From assembly GCA_964440955.1 (NCBI GenBank), contig CAYTTP010000003.1, forward strand, positions 1-56,332: a stretch of DNA of 56,332 nucleotides, given 5' to 3'. Numbering within the stretch: the first letter of the stretch is position 1; each line of letters opens with the position of its first letter. This DNA is from an uncultured Candidatus Saccharibacteria bacterium (GTDB lineage: Bacteria; Patescibacteriota; Minisyncoccia; Phycocordibacterales; WO2-35-19). Below the pieces are notes generated by a model that worked only from the letters and a program-made list of their open reading frames with translations, did no database searches and was not told the DNA's origin. Made by a program: the position numbers and the translations under genes. This document shows, piece by piece, positions 454-55,077 of the stretch.

Positions 454-604
454 GCGATATATACGGAAGTGTGGCTGAGTGGATGAAAAGCAAACTGCTT
501 TGCTTTTCATCCGGAGCAAAGCGTAGGTGGCAAATATGAAGCCACTGTTCGCAAAGCGACTTCCGTTTGAGCATCGCGATATATACGGAAGTGTGGCTGA
601 GTGG
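454..604 (+). repeat. 5'-side duplication of tRNA-Ser start with a 93-nt structured insert (variant of the tRNA-associated element)
   Basis: A 29-nt direct repeat GCGATATATACGGAAGTGTGGCTGAGTGG lies at 454-482 and 576-604. The insert 483-575 has a 14-bp hairpin with a CUGC apex. ACTTCCG (559-565) pairs with the duplicated acceptor 5' strand (464-470). Confidence 0.7.
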
Positions 605-673: not shown

Positions 674-850
674 CAAAACAAGGAACAAAATGAGTAGCAT
701 TTTGCGACTATGTTTTTGCGAGAAAAGGAGAGATTTGAAGACCTTTTGAGCTAAAATTAATTTTAAGAAAATTTTAGCCAAAAGGTGTACTGAAACTGTA
801 AGTTTCAAATCCTCTCACTTCCGCAAAACAAGGAACAAAATGAGTAGCAT
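654..850 (+). repeat. tRNA-3'-end-associated structured element, type B (tRNA-Ser copy), with 47-nt flanking direct repeats
   Basis: Segment 654-700 equals 804-850 (tRNA 3' 20 nt plus 27 nt of trailer, including the ATG of the next ORF). In the 103-nt insert, 712-739 is antisense to 804-829. The end GGTGTACTGAAACTGTAAGT resembles the tRNA-Leu(CAA) copy. Confidence 0.75.
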
Positions 851-1398: not shown

Positions 1399-1545
1399 CA
1401 AGCGTGAAGAAAATCTAAACTGCTTTAGATTTTTAGCTTGTGGAAGGCGCAGTGATGTTTTTGTTTGAGCGAAGCGAAAGGCAAAAACCACGAGCCGGGG
1501 TCGCGAGATTTTTCTGTCAAGAAAAATACTTGTGACCACAAGCGT
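1396..1545 (+). repeat. tRNA-3'-end-associated structured element, type A (tRNA-Ala copy)
   Basis: Direct repeat CCACAAGCGT at 1396-1405 and 1536-1545. Contains a CUGC-apex hairpin (AAAATCTAAA-CTGC-TTTAGATTTT), a hairpin with a GAGCGAAGCGAAA loop, and the 3' module GGGGTCGCGAG-hairpin-ACTTGTGACC (1497-1537). Confidence 0.75.
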
Positions 1546-5223: not shown

Positions 5224-6507
5224 ATGACCAAATTTCAGGTTTTTCTTTTTGGGACTTTCCTGGTTTTTATAGTTGTTGGGGTTTTCATATTTTCAAACTA
5301 TAGAGGTGACTCTGAAGGTTCGGTGCCGGTCGTCGTTTGGGGTACTCTACCTACCAACACTTTTCAGTCGGCTGTCCAGGTGTCGGGTTTATATCAAAAC
5401 GAAAGTTACTCGGTGACCTATGTCGAAAAAAGTGAGGACTCTATCGATGCTGATTTTATTGAAGCGCTTGCTTCTGGCAGTGGTCCCGACCTATTTTTGC
5501 TTCCATCAAACAAAATAATCCTCCATCGCAACAAAATTTATGCCTTGCCTTACGACTTAATCACCGAACGTGATTTTAAGGATTATTTTATCGAAGGTAG
5601 TGAAATATACATGACGCCCGAAGGTGTGGTCGGCTTGCCGCTTTTGGTCGACCCGCTTGTCATGTATTGGAATAGGGATATTTTCACCGATGTCGGCCTA
5701 GTCGCCACACCAAAATATTGGGACGAATTTTTTGATCTTGCGGCTAAGATTTCAGTCAAGGATGGAGCTCTCAATGTTTCAAGGAGCGCAGTCGCTTTTG
5801 GCGAGTATGCAAACATTGCAAACGCCAAAGACATAGTGTTAAACCTTGCCCTTCAAGCTGGGACACCTATCACTATTTGGGAAAATGGCAAGGTAAGGAG
5901 TGTCTTTGCGGAGTCTTTGGGCAAGCCGACGGTCCCAGGGGACGCGGCGGTCAATTTTTATACCGAATTTAGCAACCCATCAAAAGCTTCGTACTCGTGG
6001 AATCGCGCCCTCCCCAACTCGACCAATTTTTTTCTAGCTGGTGACTTGGCTCTATATTTTGGCTTTGCAAGTGAAATCGGAACTTTGCAGCTCAAAAATC
6101 CAAACCTCAATTTTGATGTCGCAAGTACTCCTCTTTCGCGTGAAGGCGGGGTCAATGTTTCGCTCGGCAACTATCTTGGAGTGTCTGTGGTTAAAGCTTC
6201 AAAAAATCCAGCAGCTGCTTACGCTGTTGCCTCCATATTGGCTGGTACCGATAGTGTGAAAGCTCTCTCTCAAGCTCTTGATTTGCCACCGGCAAGGCGC
6301 GATTTGCTAAGTGAGAGGCAAGTAAGCGCACATCGTAGTGTGTTTTATACAAGTGCCATCCGCTCACGCAGCTGGCTTGACCCTTCACCCAAGGTTTCAA
6401 ATACTATTTTTAAAGACATGATAGAATCAATCACGAGCGGTCGAGCTCGGGCGGGGGAGGCAGTGACCCGCGTAGAGCGTGAATTAAATGCCTTGTTCAA
6501 CAAATAA
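5224..6507 (+). CDS. extracellular solute-binding-like protein with N-terminal membrane anchor
   Basis: 427 aa with an N-terminal TM helix. PDLFLL, VMYWNRDIF and LALYFGFASE segments resemble family-1 ABC substrate-binding proteins. No permease or ATPase gene is adjacent. Confidence 0.55.
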   Translation: MTKFQVFLFGTFLVFIVVGVFIFSNYRGDSEGSVPVVVWGTLPTNTFQSAVQVSGLYQNESYSVTYVEKSEDSIDADFIEALASGSGPDLFLLPSNKIILHRNKIYALPYDLITERDFKDYFIEGSEIYMTPEGVVGLPLLVDPLVMYWNRDIFTDVGLVATPKYWDEFFDLAAKISVKDGALNVSRSAVAFGEYANIANAKDIVLNLALQAGTPITIWENGKVRSVFAESLGKPTVPGDAAVNFYTEFSNPSKASYSWNRALPNSTNFFLAGDLALYFGFASEIGTLQLKNPNLNFDVASTPLSREGGVNVSLGNYLGVSVVKASKNPAAAYAVASILAGTDSVKALSQALDLPPARRDLLSERQVSAHRSVFYTSAIRSRSWLDPSPKVSNTIFKDMIESITSGRARAGEAVTRVERELNALFNK

Positions 6508-18003: not shown

Positions 18004-18076
18004 CCGCCCGTAGCTCAGTTGGTAGAGCAGCTCCCTCTTAAGGAGATGGTCGTAGGTTCGACTCCTACCGGGCGGA
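18004..18076 (+). tRNA. tRNA-Lys(CUU), no CCA encoded
   Basis: Acceptor CCGCCCG/CGGGCGG, D arm GCTC-AGTTGGTA-GAGC, anticodon loop CTCTTAA, T arm GTAGG-TTCGACT-CCTAC, A73. The C1:G72 pair is unusual. Confidence 0.85.
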
Positions 18077-18239
18077 CAATATTGTTTCGCAATATTGTTC
18101 GACCGAGCACGCAAACTGCTTTGCGTGCGTGTAGGAAGTCGAAAGCCGGAGCCATGTTGAGCGAAGCGAAACAGGCGAGGCGGGGTCGCAAGATTTTGCT
18201 AAGCAAAATACTTGTGACCGACTCCTACCGGGCGGACAA
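18059..18239 (+). repeat. tRNA-3'-end-associated structured element, type A (tRNA-Lys copy 1), with 21-nt direct repeats
   Basis: CGACTCCTACCGGGCGGACAA lies at 18059-18079 and 18219-18239. The element carries TGTTCGACCG (antisense to the acceptor 3' strand), a CUGC-apex hairpin, GTAGGAAGTCG (antisense to CGACTCCTAC), a GAGCGAAGCGAA loop, and GGGGTCGCAAG-hairpin-ACTTGTGACC. Confidence 0.78.
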
Positions 18240-18372
18240 GCGTGAAGAAAATCTAAACTGCTTTAGATTTTTAGCTTGTCCGAGACGGAGCCATGTTTTT
18301 GTAGCAACAAAAACAGGCGAGTCAGGATCGTGGAAATTTTTGAGCGACGGCGATAAAATTATCCATGATGAC
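18240..18372 (+). repeat. tRNA-3'-end-associated structured element, type A, second tandem copy (divergent 3' module)
   Basis: It starts with AGCGTGAAGAAAATCTAAACTGCTTTAGATTTTTAGCTTGT, identical to the tRNA-Ala copy. The 3' module GTCAGGATCGTGGA-hairpin-TCCATGATGAC is analogous but diverged. GACAATATTG recurs at 18075 and 18370. Confidence 0.65.
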
Positions 18373-27135: not shown

Positions 27136-28056
27136 TTGTATAAATCAAATAAAATAGGTTATCCTCTGTTCGGAGGCCTTGTGGATAAACCTGCATTTGA
27201 AAGGTATTTTCTGAGAGATGTAAATCATCAGAGTGGTAGGGTGAAAAATCGAGAAATTTTTGCTCCAAACGATTCAATGCGTGAGGTGCAAGAGGGTATA
27301 GTGGCCAAACTTCGGTCTTTGGAGATTGAGATGCCGAGCGCGACTGGTGGTGTCAGGAATGGTTCGCCAGTCAATAACGTCCTCAAACATTGGTCACCTT
27401 ACAATAAGAGTGCGAGATACTTTTTTCTGCTTGATCTAGCATCTGCTTACAAGAATGTCCTTGTGAGCGATATGTTAGTTGAACTGAAGAGGGTGTGGCC
27501 ACATGATTGCGACGAGAAGTTTGTTCAGAGTGTTATGAATCACTGCTTGATACCGGGTGAGGGTTTGGCAACTGGAGGTAACGCCTCGCCAGATATTTTC
27601 AACCTATGTATGGAGATTTCGATTGATCGGCAAATACGCTCGTATGCCGAATACAACGATCTCACCTACACTCGTTATCTCGATGATCTGACTTTCTCAT
27701 CTCCTTTTCCGATAGGTAAGAGGAAGAGGAATACGATCATCAAGATTCTCACTGAAGCTGGTTGTGTCGTTAACCATCAAAAGTCTCAGGTGCTTGATAT
27801 CGAAAAGCATCATGTGGAAATAAATGGTATCGGCTTGCGTCGTAGCGGACACTTCTTCATGCCTAGTCGGGTCTTGGATGAGTTAAAAAACTTGCTCTAT
27901 CGGGCAACTAGAGGGGAGTCCATTTCCGATTCTCTCATTCAAGGCAAGATGGGCGGGTTCATCTATCTTAGGAGAAAAGGCTTGCTTGCTCTGACCGAGA
28001 GAGAACGTAATATCCTTCGACGGTACGAGCAATATCTGCCGTTGCGCCGGGGTTAA
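27136..28056 (+). CDS. reverse transcriptase, minimal stand-alone type (retron/defence-RT-like)
   Basis: RT motifs: NREIFAPNDSMREVQ, SATGGVRNGSPVNNVLKH, FFLLDLASAY, GLATGGNASPDIFNL, YTRYLDDLTFSS (27676-27687), VNHQKS, EINGIGL. The likely true start is GTG 27181, behind GGAGG at 27172-27176. Confidence 0.88.
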   Translation: MYKSNKIGYPLFGGLVDKPAFERYFLRDVNHQSGRVKNREIFAPNDSMREVQEGIVAKLRSLEIEMPSATGGVRNGSPVNNVLKHWSPYNKSARYFFLLDLASAYKNVLVSDMLVELKRVWPHDCDEKFVQSVMNHCLIPGEGLATGGNASPDIFNLCMEISIDRQIRSYAEYNDLTYTRYLDDLTFSSPFPIGKRKRNTIIKILTEAGCVVNHQKSQVLDIEKHHVEINGIGLRRSGHFFMPSRVLDELKNLLYRATRGESISDSLIQGKMGGFIYLRRKGLLALTERERNILRRYEQYLPLRRG

Positions 28057-28130: not shown

Positions 28131-28535
28131 ATGTCCAGTATCTCGAATAGAGAAATGACATTTGTTGTAGCTGTTCTGTACTCTTTGCCCGAAAAGTGGC
28201 GAGGGGTTGGCCGTTCTTTCTCGTTTGAGGATGTGCAAGATAGGCTACATCTTGCTTGGCATAGACTCTATCAAGAAGGATTGCTTGGGGAGTTTGGTGA
28301 ATCGTTTTCTTTTGACGCTCTTTGTGGCTCAGACAGTCTTGGGCAAGCACTTCGCACAGCTGCGGTAGATGGGCTCATAAGGATCGGTGGCTCTGATATG
28401 GCTTATCATGTTGATGTCCTGAAGCCTGACCAAATTGATCGTATGTTAGAGTCGTGCGTAATAGACCGAAGTGCCGTGACTACTGCTGTCAAACGTCTCG
28501 AAGCTATTCTCGAAGAGAAACCCTCCCCGGCTTAG
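28131..28535 (+). CDS. hypothetical 134-aa protein, RT-associated
   Basis: Strong RBS GGAGGAGG 7 nt upstream of the ATG. Same strand as the RT and 74 nt after it. No motif recognised. Confidence 0.6.
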   Translation: MSSISNREMTFVVAVLYSLPEKWRGVGRSFSFEDVQDRLHLAWHRLYQEGLLGEFGESFSFDALCGSDSLGQALRTAAVDGLIRIGGSDMAYHVDVLKPDQIDRMLESCVIDRSAVTTAVKRLEAILEEKPSPA

Positions 28536-28553: not shown

Positions 28554-28597
28554 GTAATAAACTAAAAATCTGTTAAAATCTCAAAAGTAATAATATT

Positions 28598-28681
28598 GCG
28601 TCGGTGGTAGAGTGGTCAATTACAACAGACTGTAAATCTGTCGCCCATTGGGCTACGCAGGTTCGAATCCTGCCCGGCGCA
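28598..28681 (+). tRNA. tRNA-Tyr(GUA), class II, no CCA encoded
   Basis: Acceptor GCGTCGG/CCGGCGC, anticodon arm CAGAC-TGTAAAT-CTG, long variable arm CGCCCATTGGGC, T arm GCAGG-TTCGAAT-CCTGC, A73. Confidence 0.88.
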
Positions 28682-28872
28682 CAAAATAAAACCCAGCTTC
28701 TGCTGGTGTTTTATTTTGTGCGCCGGAAGTGCAGCTTTGTGTAGCAAAGCGTAGCACGGATTCGAAAGGCGGAAGAAATTTTTTAGCAAAAAAATTTCTG
28801 AGCCGGGGTCGCGAGCGATTTTGCTTGACTGAAGCAAAATCGACTTGTGACCGAATCCTGCCCGGCGCACCA
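28664..28872 (+). repeat. tRNA-3'-end-associated structured element, type A (tRNA-Tyr copy), with 19-nt direct repeats
   Basis: CGAATCCTGCCCGGCGCAC lies at 28664-28682 and 28852-28870; the second copy reads through to ...ACCA. Internal antisense segments are GTGCGCCGG (28718-28726) and GCACGGATTCG (28754-28764). The 3' module GGTCGCGAG-hairpin-CTTGTGACC is at 28807-28852. Confidence 0.8.
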
Positions 28873-29031
28873 CTTCGCTCTGTTATCACAGAGCTTCGCG
28901 GTGCAAGCACAAAAAGATCCCCAGAGATGGTGGTATTTTTGTTATAATTAAGCGAAGTGGTCCCGCGGAGCTAAACCCAGCAAAGCTTTAGCGAAGTTGG
29001 GTAGCGGAGTGGGGCACAAATAAAATTATAT

Positions 29032-29232
29032 GAAAAAGACGCCTTGAGAGGCGTCTGGATGAGGGTGGGGAGTCAGGCTGCCGCAGGACGCGGATTATCC
29101 TATTCTCATAGGACAGACCGCTATTTGCCTATCTCTACCCACCCTCAAGCGGTGAGGATGAAGAGAGCTTCACGCAGGGCGCTTGCGCTGGCACCTGTGT
29201 GGGGTGGGTTGCTCAATCTCCATCCTCACGCA
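29032..29232 (-). ncRNA. unclassified GC-rich structured sRNA (about 200 nt)
   Basis: Consensus promoter upstream and an intrinsic terminator (AGACGCC-loop-GGCGTCT plus U5) at the 3' end. Two long irregular helices: GUGAGGAUGGAGA..GAGC/GCUC..UCUUCAUCCUCAC and GAGGGUGGG.../...CCCACCCUC, with internal GNRA-type loops. Confidence 0.65.
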
Positions 29233-35725: not shown

Positions 35726-35896
35726 CACACATAATTTTCTGCTGAAAATTTGTTCTGCTCGGTGCACCTGCGCAAGGCACGCTCGGGGAAGTTTCTGAAT
35801 GGCTCGTCCCTCATTGCAAATAATTAGCTTTGTGTTATTATTGGCTCTGTCCTAAATGGTATCTTAATTTTCAATCTTTAATTCTAAATTCAAAAA

Positions 35897-40949: not shown

Positions 40950-41030
40950 GCCGGAGTGGCGGAATGGTAGACGCGCACGACTCAAAATCGTGTCTCGCAA
41001 GGGGTGGAGGTTCAAGTCCTCTCTCCGGCA
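40950..41030 (+). tRNA. tRNA-Leu(CAA), class II, no CCA encoded
   Basis: Acceptor GCCGGAG/CTCCGGC, anticodon arm CACGA-CTCAAAA-TCGTG, variable arm, T arm GGAGG-TTCAAGT-CCTCT, A73. Confidence 0.88.
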
Positions 41031-41190
41031 CAGATTGAGCAAAGCGAAAGTGGTGTCGGAGAGGCGTAGCTTTTTGTAAAAAAGCGTTACGCGGACTTGA
41101 AACCCGATTGAGATTTTTTAGGAGTATCGCGAACTAAAAAACCAATTGGGGTACTGAGTCTGTAAGACTCAAGTCCTCTCTCCGGCACCA
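41012..41190 (+). repeat. tRNA-3'-end-associated structured element, type B (tRNA-Leu copy), with 20-nt direct repeats
   Basis: TCAAGTCCTCTCTCCGGCAC lies at 41012-41031 and 41169-41188; the second copy ends ...ACCA. TGGTGTCGGAGAGG (41051-41064) is antisense to CCTCTCTCCGGCACCA. GGACTTGA (41093-41100) is antisense to TCAAGTCC. It begins with GAGCAAAGCGAAAG. Confidence 0.78.
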
Positions 41191-46398: not shown

Positions 46399-47286
46399 CT
46401 ACACTTTCCGCACTTCTCCAAGGGATTCCTTAATGAGGCTTTTGAGCTCGAGGAGGGAGAGCAGGGTTTGAGCTTCGCCGACGTGGATTGAGTGGTCGGT
46501 CGAGAGCTTTCGGATGATTTCGTCTCGCGGGAGTGGTTCGTTGAGAAGTCGAAGTATTAATATTTCTTTTTCACTGCAATCAAAATATTTATCCTCGTCA
46601 CGCCGTAGCGGGGCGGAGGCGGATTCATCGAGTATACCAAGCGCCTCCAAAATGTCGTCACTGTTTCGAATCGGGGTCGCTCCGAGGCGGATGAGCATCA
46701 AAGGTCCTTCACTGGTTGAATTCCAAACGCTCCCCGGTACAGCAAGTACCTCTCTGTTGTATTCGGTCGCAAACTTGGAAGTGATGAGGGTGCCCGACTT
46801 TTTTTCTGCTTCGATAACAAGGGTTGCGTGTGACATGCCGGCCATGATGCGATTGCGTTGAGGGAAGCTGTATTGGGTCGCTTTGAAGTCTGGTTCAAAT
46901 TCGGAAAGCAGAGTACCACCTTCTTTTACTATTTTTTCAGCAAGCAGTATGTGTGATTGGGGGTGAAGTACTTCTGGTGAAAGCCCGGAGCCGGGGACGG
47001 AAATGGTCGGTAATTTGTTTTTGAGGGCAGAGTTATGAGCAATTGAGTCGATACCAAGTGCCAAACCGGAGACTATTGTCACAGGATTTCCTTTCAAACC
47101 CTCGATCAAACTTTCAGTCACCTCCTTGCCATATTGGGTGTATTTGCGCGCACCGACCACACAAAGAAGTTTGCGACTCCAGTCAGGCACTTGGCCTGCA
47201 AAGTTTAGTTTTAGAGGAGGCTTTGGAATTTCGGAGAGCAGGGGAGGCCAATTGGTGGTGTCGAGATTTTTTATTTCGTAGGCCAT
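46399..47286 (-). CDS. dprA: DNA-processing protein DprA
   Basis: Rossmann-like core VSGLALGIDSIAH...AEKKSGTLITS and a C-terminal winged-helix-like tail. Confidence 0.88.
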   Translation of the reverse strand: MAYEIKNLDTTNWPPLLSEIPKPPLKLNFAGQVPDWSRKLLCVVGARKYTQYGKEVTESLIEGLKGNPVTIVSGLALGIDSIAHNSALKNKLPTISVPGSGLSPEVLHPQSHILLAEKIVKEGGTLLSEFEPDFKATQYSFPQRNRIMAGMSHATLVIEAEKKSGTLITSKFATEYNREVLAVPGSVWNSTSEGPLMLIRLGATPIRNSDDILEALGILDESASAPLRRDEDKYFDCSEKEILILRLLNEPLPRDEIIRKLSTDHSIHVGEAQTLLSLLELKSLIKESLGEVRKV

Positions 47287-54729: not shown

Positions 54730-55061
54730 TCCGGGATAGCTCAGCGGTAGAGCGAGCGACTGTGTCGTGACGCAGCTTCCAAAAGAAATTTTGGTTGAAA
54801 AACGAGGTGAATTCGGGGGAACCCCAAGTGGGCAATCCCGAGCCAATCCTAAATTAAAGAAAGATATTGTTGTGTAAAAACTTTAATTAAGGCAGGTGTA
54901 GAGACTATTCCGAAAGGAAGTACTTACTCCGTATTTCGGAGTCGGGAAGCGCCTCGCTCCTAATAGCCAATTTGGTTAAAGGAGATGATATAGTCCATAC
55001 TTCTAGTAATAGAAGAGAATATGTAATCGCTTGGTCGTAGGTTCGATCCCTACTCCCGGAG
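54730..55061 (+). tRNA. tRNA-Asn(GUU) interrupted by a group I intron in the anticodon loop; no CCA encoded
   Basis: Exons 54730-54763 and 55024-55061 join to give acceptor TCCGGGA/TCCCGGA (U1:A72, G73 as in tRNA-Asn), anticodon arm AGCGA-CTGTTAA-TCGCT, T arm GTAGG-TTCGATC-CCTAC. Confidence 0.85.
54764..55023 (+). ncRNA. group I intron (IC3-like), 260 nt, no ORF
   Basis: The 5' exon ends in U and the intron ends in G. GCAG (54772-54775) can pair with the exon CUGU as P1. The core strings GAATTCGGGGGAACCCCAAG, GAGCCAA and GGTGTAGAGACTA (54895-54907) match the conserved core of bacterial tRNA group I introns. Confidence 0.85.
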
Positions 55062-55077
55062 CAAAGGAATTTAATAT

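Follow-up and report, generated by a model that had tools for sequence, protein, structure and literature searches.

This study concerns a stretch of 56,332 nt, hereafter the window, of contig CAYTTP010000003.1 from an uncultured Candidatus Saccharibacteria bacterium (assembly GCA_964440955.1), and in particular the structured element that lies directly 3' of an intact tRNA-Tyr gene in it (28598-28872). This element carries segments antisense to the end of its own tRNA and is followed by a second copy of that end. It was assigned to a group of elements designated here family A; a second group is designated family B. The features of the tRNA-Tyr copy are listed below, where S1 and S2 are the first and the displaced copy of the tRNA end, AS-A and AS-B the antisense segments, and P-a and P-b the two parts of the core.

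28598-28682, plus strand: intact tRNA-Tyr(GTA) (ARAGORN; Rfam tRNA, 60.6 bits)
28664-28682, plus strand: S1, first repeat copy, from T-loop C56 to C74 (exact 19-nt direct repeat)
28683-28717, plus strand: trailer hairpin, with an A-tract, a GC hairpin at 28693-28706 and a T-tract (terminator scan)
28718-28726, plus strand: AS-A (GTGCGCCGG), antisense to the acceptor 3' strand with A73 and C74
28729-28757, plus strand: junction hairpin between AS-A and AS-B, holding a GCAAAGC mini-hairpin motif (fold; motif enrichment)
28758-28766, plus strand: AS-B (GGATTCGAA), antisense to the T loop and to the first part of the T-stem 3' strand
28767-28852, plus strand: family A core (model R1, 57.9 bits, E = 3.7e-12; covariation; compensatory variants of P-b)
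28768-28804, plus strand: P-a, a GNC/GN'C helix with a GGA/GA loop and a hairpin
28807-28852, plus strand: P-b, GGTCGCGAG / A-CTTGTGACC; two of its pairs are G.U, one A is bulged, and the distal hairpin is perfect but variable
28852-28872, plus strand: S2, displaced tRNA-end copy (C56-C74), then CA, giving CCA (exact direct repeat)

The tRNA-Tyr gene terminates in ...A73 C74 and does not encode the CCA, and S1 is part of the working tRNA. The sequence CGAATCCTGCCCGGCGCAC (28664-28682) is identical to 28852-28870; 169 nt separate the two copies, and the last C of P-b is at the same time C56 of S2. AS-A, GTGCGCCGG, is the perfect complement of CCGGCGCAC and closes a perfect 19-bp hairpin (28674-28692 / 28708-28726) whose arms take in the first repeat copy, the stem of the trailer hairpin running on into the S1:AS-A pairing. 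By consensus match, the GC hairpin at 28693-28706 together with TGTTTTATTT fits an intrinsic terminator on both strands. AS-B, GGATTCGAA, is the perfect complement of TTCGAATCC at 28662-28670, and the partners of its final two A, T54 and T55, exist in the intact tRNA only. The element with S2 folded at -99 kcal/mol (z = -9.9 against shuffles), and folded as DNA it gave z = -11.7. A preliminary description of this locus had reported the repeat, the reading of its second copy on to ...ACCA and both antisense segments; these statements and their coordinates were confirmed.

Further element-like sequence with hairpins was observed 3' of S2 (28871-29025, plus strand). In it, GCGAAGTGGT is antisense to ACCACTTCGC, the tRNA end with CCA and flank, and the stretch terminates in GGGGCACAAATAAAA, similar to the S1 junction GGCGCACAAAATAAA. 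It is probably an older insertion at the displaced Tyr copy.

The window copies were compared with about 100 relatives, and the anatomy of family A was established as a succession of seven parts. A complete tRNA, the 3' part of which is S1, is usually followed by an A-tract, a GC hairpin and a T-tract fitting an intrinsic terminator, the stem of which continues into the next part; such terminator-like trailer hairpins are present at many loci. Two optional parts come next, AS-A, antisense to the acceptor strand, and the junction hairpin. They are followed by AS-B, antisense to the T loop and some of the T stem and constant in elements of the T-loop type, and by a core of at least 63 nt, in which AG-N-CGG-AG, hairpin 1, CGAG-N'-CGG, GGTCGCGAG, hairpin 2, A and CTTGTGAC succeed one another. 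S2 is the last part. The smallest elements measure just 130-190 nt. In one subfamily (loci L009, L017, L031, L062, L063, L068, L074, L116, L056 and L080) a mini-hairpin of 12-24 nt (e.g., AAGTGTACTCAC or TAGCGTAATCGC) splits S2 after GA, and the remaining T arm follows it.

Covariation of the core was scored on a 40-sequence alignment against shuffles and slid controls. In the core helices 96% of the cells paired, compared with 80.5% in shuffled alignments and about 40-46% in the slid controls, and changes on both sides were counted in 120 cells versus 29.5 in shuffles. The positions N and N' covary (CG 26, AU 7, GC 2, UA 1). The P-b stem was fixed by the search pattern, and its test consisted of the copies recovered with the covariance model, which keep P-b by compensatory changes and a G.U at pair 5 (a divergent tRNA-Lys copy of the window, Lys2, and L058:2650, L072:7545 and L094:5764). 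The core of family A is a selected fold with strongly covarying helices. The module GGTCGCGAG-hairpin-A-CTTGTGACC was found, as described previously, in the Ala, Lys and Tyr copies of the window with compensating inner hairpins. The earlier proposal of a selected RNA fold is thus upheld as regards a structured, covarying family, the pair counts given below leaving undecided whether RNA or single-stranded DNA (ssDNA) is the folded molecule.

The pattern of the 3' module was used to scan the GTDB one-genome-per-species set, and at least 117 stretches were obtained. Among the matches listed, 107 of 122 were true family members, three of them in the window, originating from at least 102 GTDB species genomes in addition to the window, so that the family is conserved well beyond the genome in which it had been noticed. 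Carriers are almost all Patescibacteria, the Candidate Phyla Radiation (CPR), with the addition of Elusimicrobia; the first 80 record titles included about 60 CPR lineages, 26 of them Saccharibacteria, and 9 Elusimicrobia. A same-strand tRNA ending 60-280 nt upstream was present for 79 of the matches listed, representing about 17 amino-acid types, and most of these 79 carry a tRNA-end repeat of 7-31 nt. Three matches lie about 115 nt after transfer-messenger RNA (tmRNA) genes and have the terminator hairpin, AS-A, junction hairpin, AS-B and core all present. S2 started with T-loop sequence in 54 and with AC.., the acceptor end, in 15 of the matches listed, and across loci the repeat length ranged from 6 to >100 nt. 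A search of 2.9 million viral contigs yielded one true family A match, and the idea of a phage attP feature was accordingly dropped. At three loci (L015, at 6268-6333, L084 and L103) family A cores are followed by AGCGGTGTCCGCTGA in place of a tRNA end; the next gene lies 60-80 nt downstream and is a plain tRNA-Asn at two of them (L084 and L103) and a group I intron at the third (L015).

Family B is represented in the window by the copies 3' of tRNA-Leu and tRNA-Ser. Its terminal hairpin, TACTGAxxCT-GTA-AGxxTCA, overlaps the T loop of S2, and its pattern was found in at least 120 metagenome contigs, with an upstream same-strand tRNA for 93 of the 122 matches listed. The order of the parts is as in family A, with an unrelated core that consists of a single covarying hairpin, e.g., CCCGATTGAG..CCAATCGGGG or ACCTTTTG..CAAAAGGT. 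That two unrelated cores have a common antisense and repeat logic suggests that this logic stems from insertion or its tolerance and not from one scaffold. These data show that families A and B are large conserved groups of structured, protein-less elements in the 3' ends of tRNA and tmRNA genes.

Their occurrence is that of an insertion element, in agreement with the earlier proposal in this respect: many tRNA types and tmRNA are occupied, arrays and cargo occur, and near-identical copies stand at different tRNAs in different species. Elements are patchy over tRNA types, and related genomes hold the same tRNAs element-free. Arrays are exemplified in the window by Lys1, with a perfect repeat, upstream of Lys2, and in L072 by four units with P-b remnants between them; second copies decay and arrays degenerate. 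Larger versions carry cargo and finish in AS-B, core and S2:

L115, 1.2 kb: NUDIX protein and P-loop kinase-like protein
L057, 3.4 kb: protein kinase and lipoproteins
L054, >7.5 kb: AbiE toxin-antitoxin pair and ATPase

The repeat of L057, of about 65 nt, takes in the terminator, which differs by a compensatory pair. None of these three cargo versions contains an integrase. All-against-all clustering of 1143 open reading frames (ORFs) within 2.5 kb of the 117 loci revealed no enriched protein family near them; the maximum was 9 of 117 loci, and all such families were housekeeping genes, for which reason a linked mobility gene was rejected.

The same design was recognized in RtT (RF00391) of Escherichia coli. 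The RtT/tyrT repeats have been known since the late 1970s and were described for tRNA-Tyr in enterobacteria. As a positive control, four RtT units were recovered in E. coli K-12 with Rfam scores of 133-138 bits. The tyrT-tyrV repeats are units of about 178 nt, each ending in the last 19 nt of tRNA-Tyr; the antisense segment of the unit, GGGGAAGGAT, opposes ATCCTTCCCC of the tRNA, a pairing that is extendable to 22 nt at 86% and then covers the whole T arm, and it is followed by hairpins and AATCCTTCCCCCACCACCA, including the GCGAAGCGC motif. The Rfam consensus is closed by an antisense:repeat helix and ends in CCACCA, and rttR is annotated as a 171-nt non-coding RNA (ncRNA) starting 7 nt past tyrV and ending at the duplicated CCA. 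Of 5426 complete E. coli genomes, 4726 contain RtT, each of them at 1-9 places. In strain SK1144 (L251) tyrT and tyrV are 33 nt apart, with no RtT and with other downstream genes, and K-12 (L252) has four units.

Like the window elements, RtT lies directly 3' of tRNA-Tyr genes and on the same strand, and it has in common with the CPR elements the antisense segment, the hairpins, the tRNA-end repeat, the closing antisense:repeat helix and the formation of tandem arrays, its copy number differing among strains. No sequence or model similarity links them, and the CPR families differ further in their presence at about 17 or more tRNA types and tmRNA, their two unrelated cores, the frequent terminator and the possible cargo. 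The elements had not been recognized as a known family; this holds for the RF00391 model, which gives no match, and does not hold for the design, which equals that of RtT. The literature was searched for a prior account of the CPR elements and none was found. The CPR family is uncatalogued, and its design is of a known kind, RtT, itself unexplained.

The interpretation preferred here, to which we give an even chance, is that both families are RtT-like insertion elements, in which the antisense segment and the displaced end close a single-strand fold that is the recognized unit, and which are inserted in trans. DNA would enter by recombination in the T loop or acceptor end with an enzyme supplied from elsewhere, or else by homologous exchange through the tRNA sequence. 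By either route the tRNA would be kept whole and the old or duplicated end would remain as the repeat. On one strand, the antisense segment and the displaced end would zip the element into a compact fold ending in the tRNA 3' tail. In RNA, by analogy with RtT, the tRNA-processing machinery may cut the element cleanly from read-through transcripts, which would make the insertion harmless; the closed fold could serve as a recombination substrate as well. Larger versions would carry their cargo genes in the same frame. An excised and rejoined form is predicted to have a core|S1 junction, for example ACTTGTGAC joined to CGAATCC...CACAAAATAAAAC.

Alternatively, the elements could be RNAs of benefit to the host, for instance decoys or mimics of the tRNA 3' end in its uncharged state, or aids in tRNA transcript processing, a role put forward for RtT. 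The core is strongly conserved across phyla and the predicted element RNA ends in the tRNA's own 3' tail, and RtT is described as taking part in the processing of the tyrT transcript and, probably, in the stringent response (10.1101/2024.07.17.603846). The tRNA-end mimic, already among the earlier proposals, receives by analogy indirect help from the annotated RtT RNA ending at the duplicated CCA. The RtT region was also reported as enriched in exonuclease-resistant 'mobilome' DNA under stress, with its mode of action unknown (10.1101/2024.07.17.603846). The patchiness across tRNA types and genomes, the element-free tRNAs of related genomes, the decay of second copies and arrays and the cargo versions are better accommodated by selfish spread than by a host-beneficial RNA, which is considered improbable.

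Several results weigh against the RtT-like interpretation. No recombinase was identified near the elements. One exact-pattern metagenome scan for the predicted empty tRNA-Trp allele of L021 gave no match; likewise, the closest MurC homologue of the present genome is 67% identical, and no orthologous empty site was thus obtained. The named MurC relatives that scored best belong to a Patescibacteria group bacterium and a Zambryskibacteria bacterium. The RtT model had no match in the window at the gathering threshold and none at E ≤10 on 28560-29080 or 400-1620, so membership in RtT by model fails. The antisense segment reaches the end of the repeat in 7 of 30 long-repeat loci, so that a full mimic of the acceptor end is the exception, and the notion that it always mirrors the whole repeat was dropped. 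A terminator-like hairpin separates the tRNA from the antisense segments and core, which implies that the core would be made by read-through only. Finally, the intolerance of G.U pairs in the antisense:target pairing and in hairpin 2 fits DNA-level copying or a DNA substrate better. The pair counts are as follows:

tRNA stems (control): G.U 48, A.C 2
Trailer hairpin: G.U 25, A.C 5
Hairpin 1: G.U 12, A.C 1
Hairpin 2 (514 Watson-Crick pairs; about 60 distinct stems): G.U 3, A.C 1
Antisense:S1, positions 59-65: G.U 11, A.C 13

For the trailer hairpin and hairpin 1 combined, the G.U:A.C ratio was 37:6 (p = 1.6e-6), and this excess indicates that the tRNA-sense strand folds. Hairpin 2 was depleted of G.U in comparison with tRNA stems (Fisher p = 3e-6). 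An initial G.U excess of 52:12 in the antisense:target pairs, taken as proof of an RNA guide, was discarded as scoring bias, since unbiased and fixed-window counts show none. The fold is single-stranded and strand-specific, and the evidence on RNA versus ssDNA points both ways.

These counts bear on the possibility, which we judge rather unlikely, that the fold is an ssDNA attachment site of the attC or CTX-phage kind. Such sites owe their identity to structure rather than to sequence, their enzyme is provided in trans, and what recombines is a folded single strand. Applied to the present elements, the antisense segment and the element-borne tRNA end would rebuild the target duplex, the hairpins would hold both, a host tyrosine- or HUH-type recombinase would carry out a single-strand exchange at the foot of P-b, and the insertion would be completed by replication. 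As in attC, P-b combines a conserved stem base, with fixed mismatches and one bulged A, and a distal stem that is perfect but variable, with cargo upstream and copies in arrays; yet the attC boxes RYYYAAC / GTTRRRY are not present, the conserved stem being GGTCGCGAG / CTTGTGACC, neither an integron integrase nor an attI platform was found around the loci, and here the target is a tRNA gene and the site contains an antisense copy of it. The almost purely Watson-Crick antisense:target pairing and hairpin 2, the position of the terminator ahead of the core, the strong fold as DNA, the strand-specific mismatches, the tRNA/tmRNA targets with no linked enzyme gene and the single antisense/repeat logic around two unrelated cores would all suit an ssDNA site. 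So would the DNA-stable mini-hairpins of the GCGAAGC type: the motif AGCRAAGCG has 9 sites in the window versus 1.2 expected, five of them inside elements (515, 1468, 18160, 28743 and 41038), and it also caps element hairpins in many genomes and in E. coli RtT. More typical of RNA are the conserved G.U of P-b and the G.U excess in hairpin 1 and the trailer hairpin, and the E. coli analogue is a real RNA. DprA, which handles incoming ssDNA, is encoded in the window (46399-47286, minus strand) and is mentioned as background for an ssDNA route only.

The statement that the antisense segment changes with the tRNA was borne out by the T-loop variants, which it tracks with Watson-Crick pairs in 36 of 37 cases at position 59 and in 34 of 37 at position 60, the pairing fading from position 61 to 72. 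The segment is in every case directed against either the T loop with the T stem or the acceptor end, and sometimes against the entire stretch from T loop to end; its complementarity is to the uninterrupted target and runs over the junction. In elements of the T-loop type, T54 and T55, which are absent from S2, face the final two A of the antisense segment, and S2 begins at C56. In the acceptor-end type the last antisense base covaries with position 70 (A:T70 in the Ala copy of the window, L030 and L018; G:C70 in L005, L077 and L082) and S2 begins at C72. The offset between the start of S2 and the last antisense partner is therefore 2 nt in both types.

This geometry could be explained by guide-directed insertion, in which the antisense segment is the guide, the core its scaffold, and an enzyme acting in trans performs strand transfer 2 nt inside the duplex. 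Besides the fixed offset, with S2 starting 2 nt 3' of the last antisense partner, and the match to the uninterrupted target, the antisense segment stands immediately 5' of the core in two unrelated families, and elements with a generic antisense segment occur at several tRNAs having that T loop. Among the latter, L017 and L116 (tRNA-Arg) and L008 (tRNA-Lys) contain near-identical elements with the generic segments AATCGAA and TTTGTG and a tRNA-specific S2, which indicates that the antisense segment is not re-copied at each insertion. A perfect S2 is, however, accompanied by a mismatched antisense segment in L001, L053, L055 and L096, S2 of the same molecule can sequester the antisense segment, no enzyme is linked, and the repeats are long and variable (7 to >100 nt), unlike those of known guide-directed systems; guide-directed insertion is therefore regarded as unlikely. 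Of the mobile element targeted by RNA complementarity proposed earlier, the insertion behaviour stands and the guide role is not established, given the generic antisense segments at these three loci and the lack of G.U excess.

A bolder version is offered tentatively, with a fairly low likelihood: the antisense segment would be a programmable address, its scaffold-held pairing would direct a host enzyme in trans to a point 2 nt inside the pairing, and RtT would be a relic of such a system. If true, this would be a natural guide-directed insertion system that bears cargo and needs no linked protein gene. In any case, the fixed antisense-to-junction geometry makes pairing-based insertion or processing directly testable.

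Guided and structured elements of other kinds were also compared. IS200/IS605, PATEs and REP/RAYT elements have strand-specific hairpins, and a short internal DNA guide reads their target or cleavage sites; non-autonomous copies are mobilized by one distant enzyme gene. Their guides are of 4-5 nt, with no target repeat, whereas the present elements have a pairing of 7-24 nt and a flanking repeat of 7 to >100 nt. The bridge (seek) RNA of the IS110 family is structured, of about 150-200 nt, located at the element end, and has bipartite target-complementary segments. It adjoins the recombinase gene, its target and donor loops read both DNA strands and no long repeat is formed; the two segments of the present elements are both complementary to the same single strand, and these elements have no linked recombinase. 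'Theta' ribozymes, which resemble that of hepatitis delta virus, are structured RNAs located immediately 3' of tRNAs on the same strand, but these and other self-cleaving ribozymes have neither a tRNA-end repeat nor an antisense segment. Rfam searches of the window at the gathering threshold and of the two regions at E ≤10 gave no match to known self-cleaving ribozymes, T-boxes or tmRNA, and only tRNAs and one group I intron were detected. Readings of core parts as a hammerhead, K-turn, H/ACA pocket or anticodon arm were rejected by eye, the defining nucleotides being missing. Miniature inverted-repeat transposable elements were rejected, as there are no terminal inverted repeats and the repeat length varies from 6 to >100 nt, and so was a group I or group II intron, the sole Rfam intron being at 54754-55016 and the upstream copy alone constituting a complete tRNA. 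Many loci have a downstream copy that has diverged or been truncated.

Genomic islands and prophages with tyrosine integrases resemble the elements in more respects. Their integration sites in tRNA and tmRNA genes are the T loop or the 3' extremity, and the gene is left intact. A direct repeat extends from the crossover past the 3' end; its left edge is fixed and its right edge varies. They also form tandem arrays with accessory or defence cargo. Integration sublocations in tRNA and tmRNA genes were reportedly treated by Williams (Nucleic Acids Res, 2002). Insertion at the T loop or 3' end, a restored gene and a 3' direct repeat were all found here. No integrase was found inside or near the elements (within 2.5 kb of the 117 loci, in the cargo versions or among the window ORFs tested); the elements also possess a single-strand fold that is conserved and covaries, and they contain their target in antisense, neither of which classical attP sites have. 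Partial tRNA 3' ends beside tRNA genes are a classic scar of island integration, and the repeats might thus be decayed tandem tRNA duplicates or scars of excised islands, no element proper being involved. The internal segments are, though, true antisense and not sense (AATCGAA opposite TTCGATT), and the 63-nt core covaries and has been conserved between phyla. Neither the antisense orientation nor such a core would be expected of tRNA duplicates, and this explanation, which the preliminary description had itself named as a pattern that would overturn its proposal, is refuted and hardly credible. None of the refuting conditions set out in that description overturned it.

Two genes lie between ClpB and tRNA-Tyr:

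27136-28056, plus strand: retron-like reverse transcriptase (RT) of about 300 aa (Pfam RVT_1; best PADLOC model RT_II-A)
28131-28535, plus strand: ORF of 134 aa with no family match

The RT gene is 0.5 kb upstream of tRNA-Tyr and belongs to a small clade found only in CPR, with 26 homologues at E < 1e-10. A non-coding gap of about 200-550 nt was observed upstream of the RT homologues, as expected of retron ncRNA genes. The proximity of the RT gene, and the TGG opposite CCA in the antisense segment of the family B Leu copy, the only such case, could suggest a retroelement, in which the antisense segment would be a primer-binding site, or the tRNA-like 3' end the start for RT, with the neighbouring RT as the mobilizing enzyme. 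The antisense segments of family A pair instead with the gene sequence beyond C74 (TTTGTGC... opposite genomic GCACAAA, with CACAAA past the tRNA, or past CCA into the flank) and not with the mature CCA end; the loci of four RT homologues have no family A element, and the RT family is not found near the 117 element loci. The primer-binding-site reading proposed earlier thus fails for family A, the neighbouring RT was ruled out as the engine because the element is missing from the loci of its homologues, and a retroelement appears very improbable. The RT is treated as an unrelated neighbour of the Tyr element. The earlier remark that no integrase or transposase is nearby is true of the ORFs tested, but it passed over this RT gene, unlinked as it is. 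In two Logan contigs of the same organism (L118 and L119) the independent assemblies end 88-93 nt past the 134-aa ORF, at the tRNA-Tyr/element region, and element repeats likely fragment assemblies.

For these very small genomes the results mean that tRNA and tmRNA ends are colonized by protein-less elements, with arrays and defence or accessory cargo, while the gene works on. The E. coli RtT/tyrT oddity is linked to a widespread class in CPR and Elusimicrobia, which gives a comparative handle on both. In practical terms, the elements probably break assemblies at tRNA loci, leftover tRNA 3' fragments can be mistaken for island scars, and RNA and repeat libraries could gain two new covariance-model families.

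The count of seven copies flanking five plus-strand tRNA genes was found to be correct: four belong to family A (the Ala, Lys1, Lys2 and Tyr copies, which the model scores at 27-68 bits), two to family B, and one lies on the 5' side of a tRNA. The copies other than that of tRNA-Tyr are:

1400-1537, plus strand: family A after tRNA-Ala, acceptor-end type (R1, 63.3 bits at 1445-1537)
1396-1405 and 1536-1545, plus strand: repeat of the Ala copy, CCACAAGCGT
1436-1444, plus strand: antisense segment of the Ala copy, GCTTGTGGA
18080-18218, plus strand: Lys1, family A after tRNA-Lys, T-loop type (R1, 67.8 bits at 18144-18219)
18059-18079 and 18219-18239, plus strand: 21-nt repeat of Lys1
18240-18370, plus strand: Lys2, divergent family A copy in tandem with Lys1 (R1, 27.2 bits with alignment)
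41032-41168, plus strand: family B after tRNA-Leu(CAA) (repeat 41012-41031 and 41169-41188)
701-800, plus strand: family B after tRNA-Ser(CGA) (50-nt repeat 651-700 and 801-850)
488-575, plus strand: element on the 5' side of tRNA-Ser, 88-nt insert (34-nt repeat 454-487 and 576-609)

The 5' 40 nt of Lys2 are identical to the Ala copy, with the antisense segment altered to GCTTGTCCG; the antisense segments of the two diverge exactly at the positions that differ between the tRNAs, and the P-b helix of Lys2 is preserved through four compensatory changes. The antisense segments of the Leu copy are TGGTGTCGGAGAG and GGACTTGAA. On the 5' side of tRNA-Ser the repeat consists of upstream sequence and the tRNA 5' end, the antisense segment is ACTTCCGT and the layout is a mirror image, which indicates that tRNA 5' ends are colonized too. 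At 35729-35775 on the minus strand, part of the family A core is weakly matched (16.5 bits, E = 0.035); this site is intergenic, has no adjoining tRNA and may be a remnant.

A further tRNA of the window, at 54731-55066 on the plus strand, is missed by ARAGORN and is split in the anticodon loop by a group I intron (54754-55016; Rfam, 78.2 bits). Introns at position 35/36 of tRNA-Asn/Asp have been reported in Patescibacteria (PMC13011429), and the split tRNA fits them.

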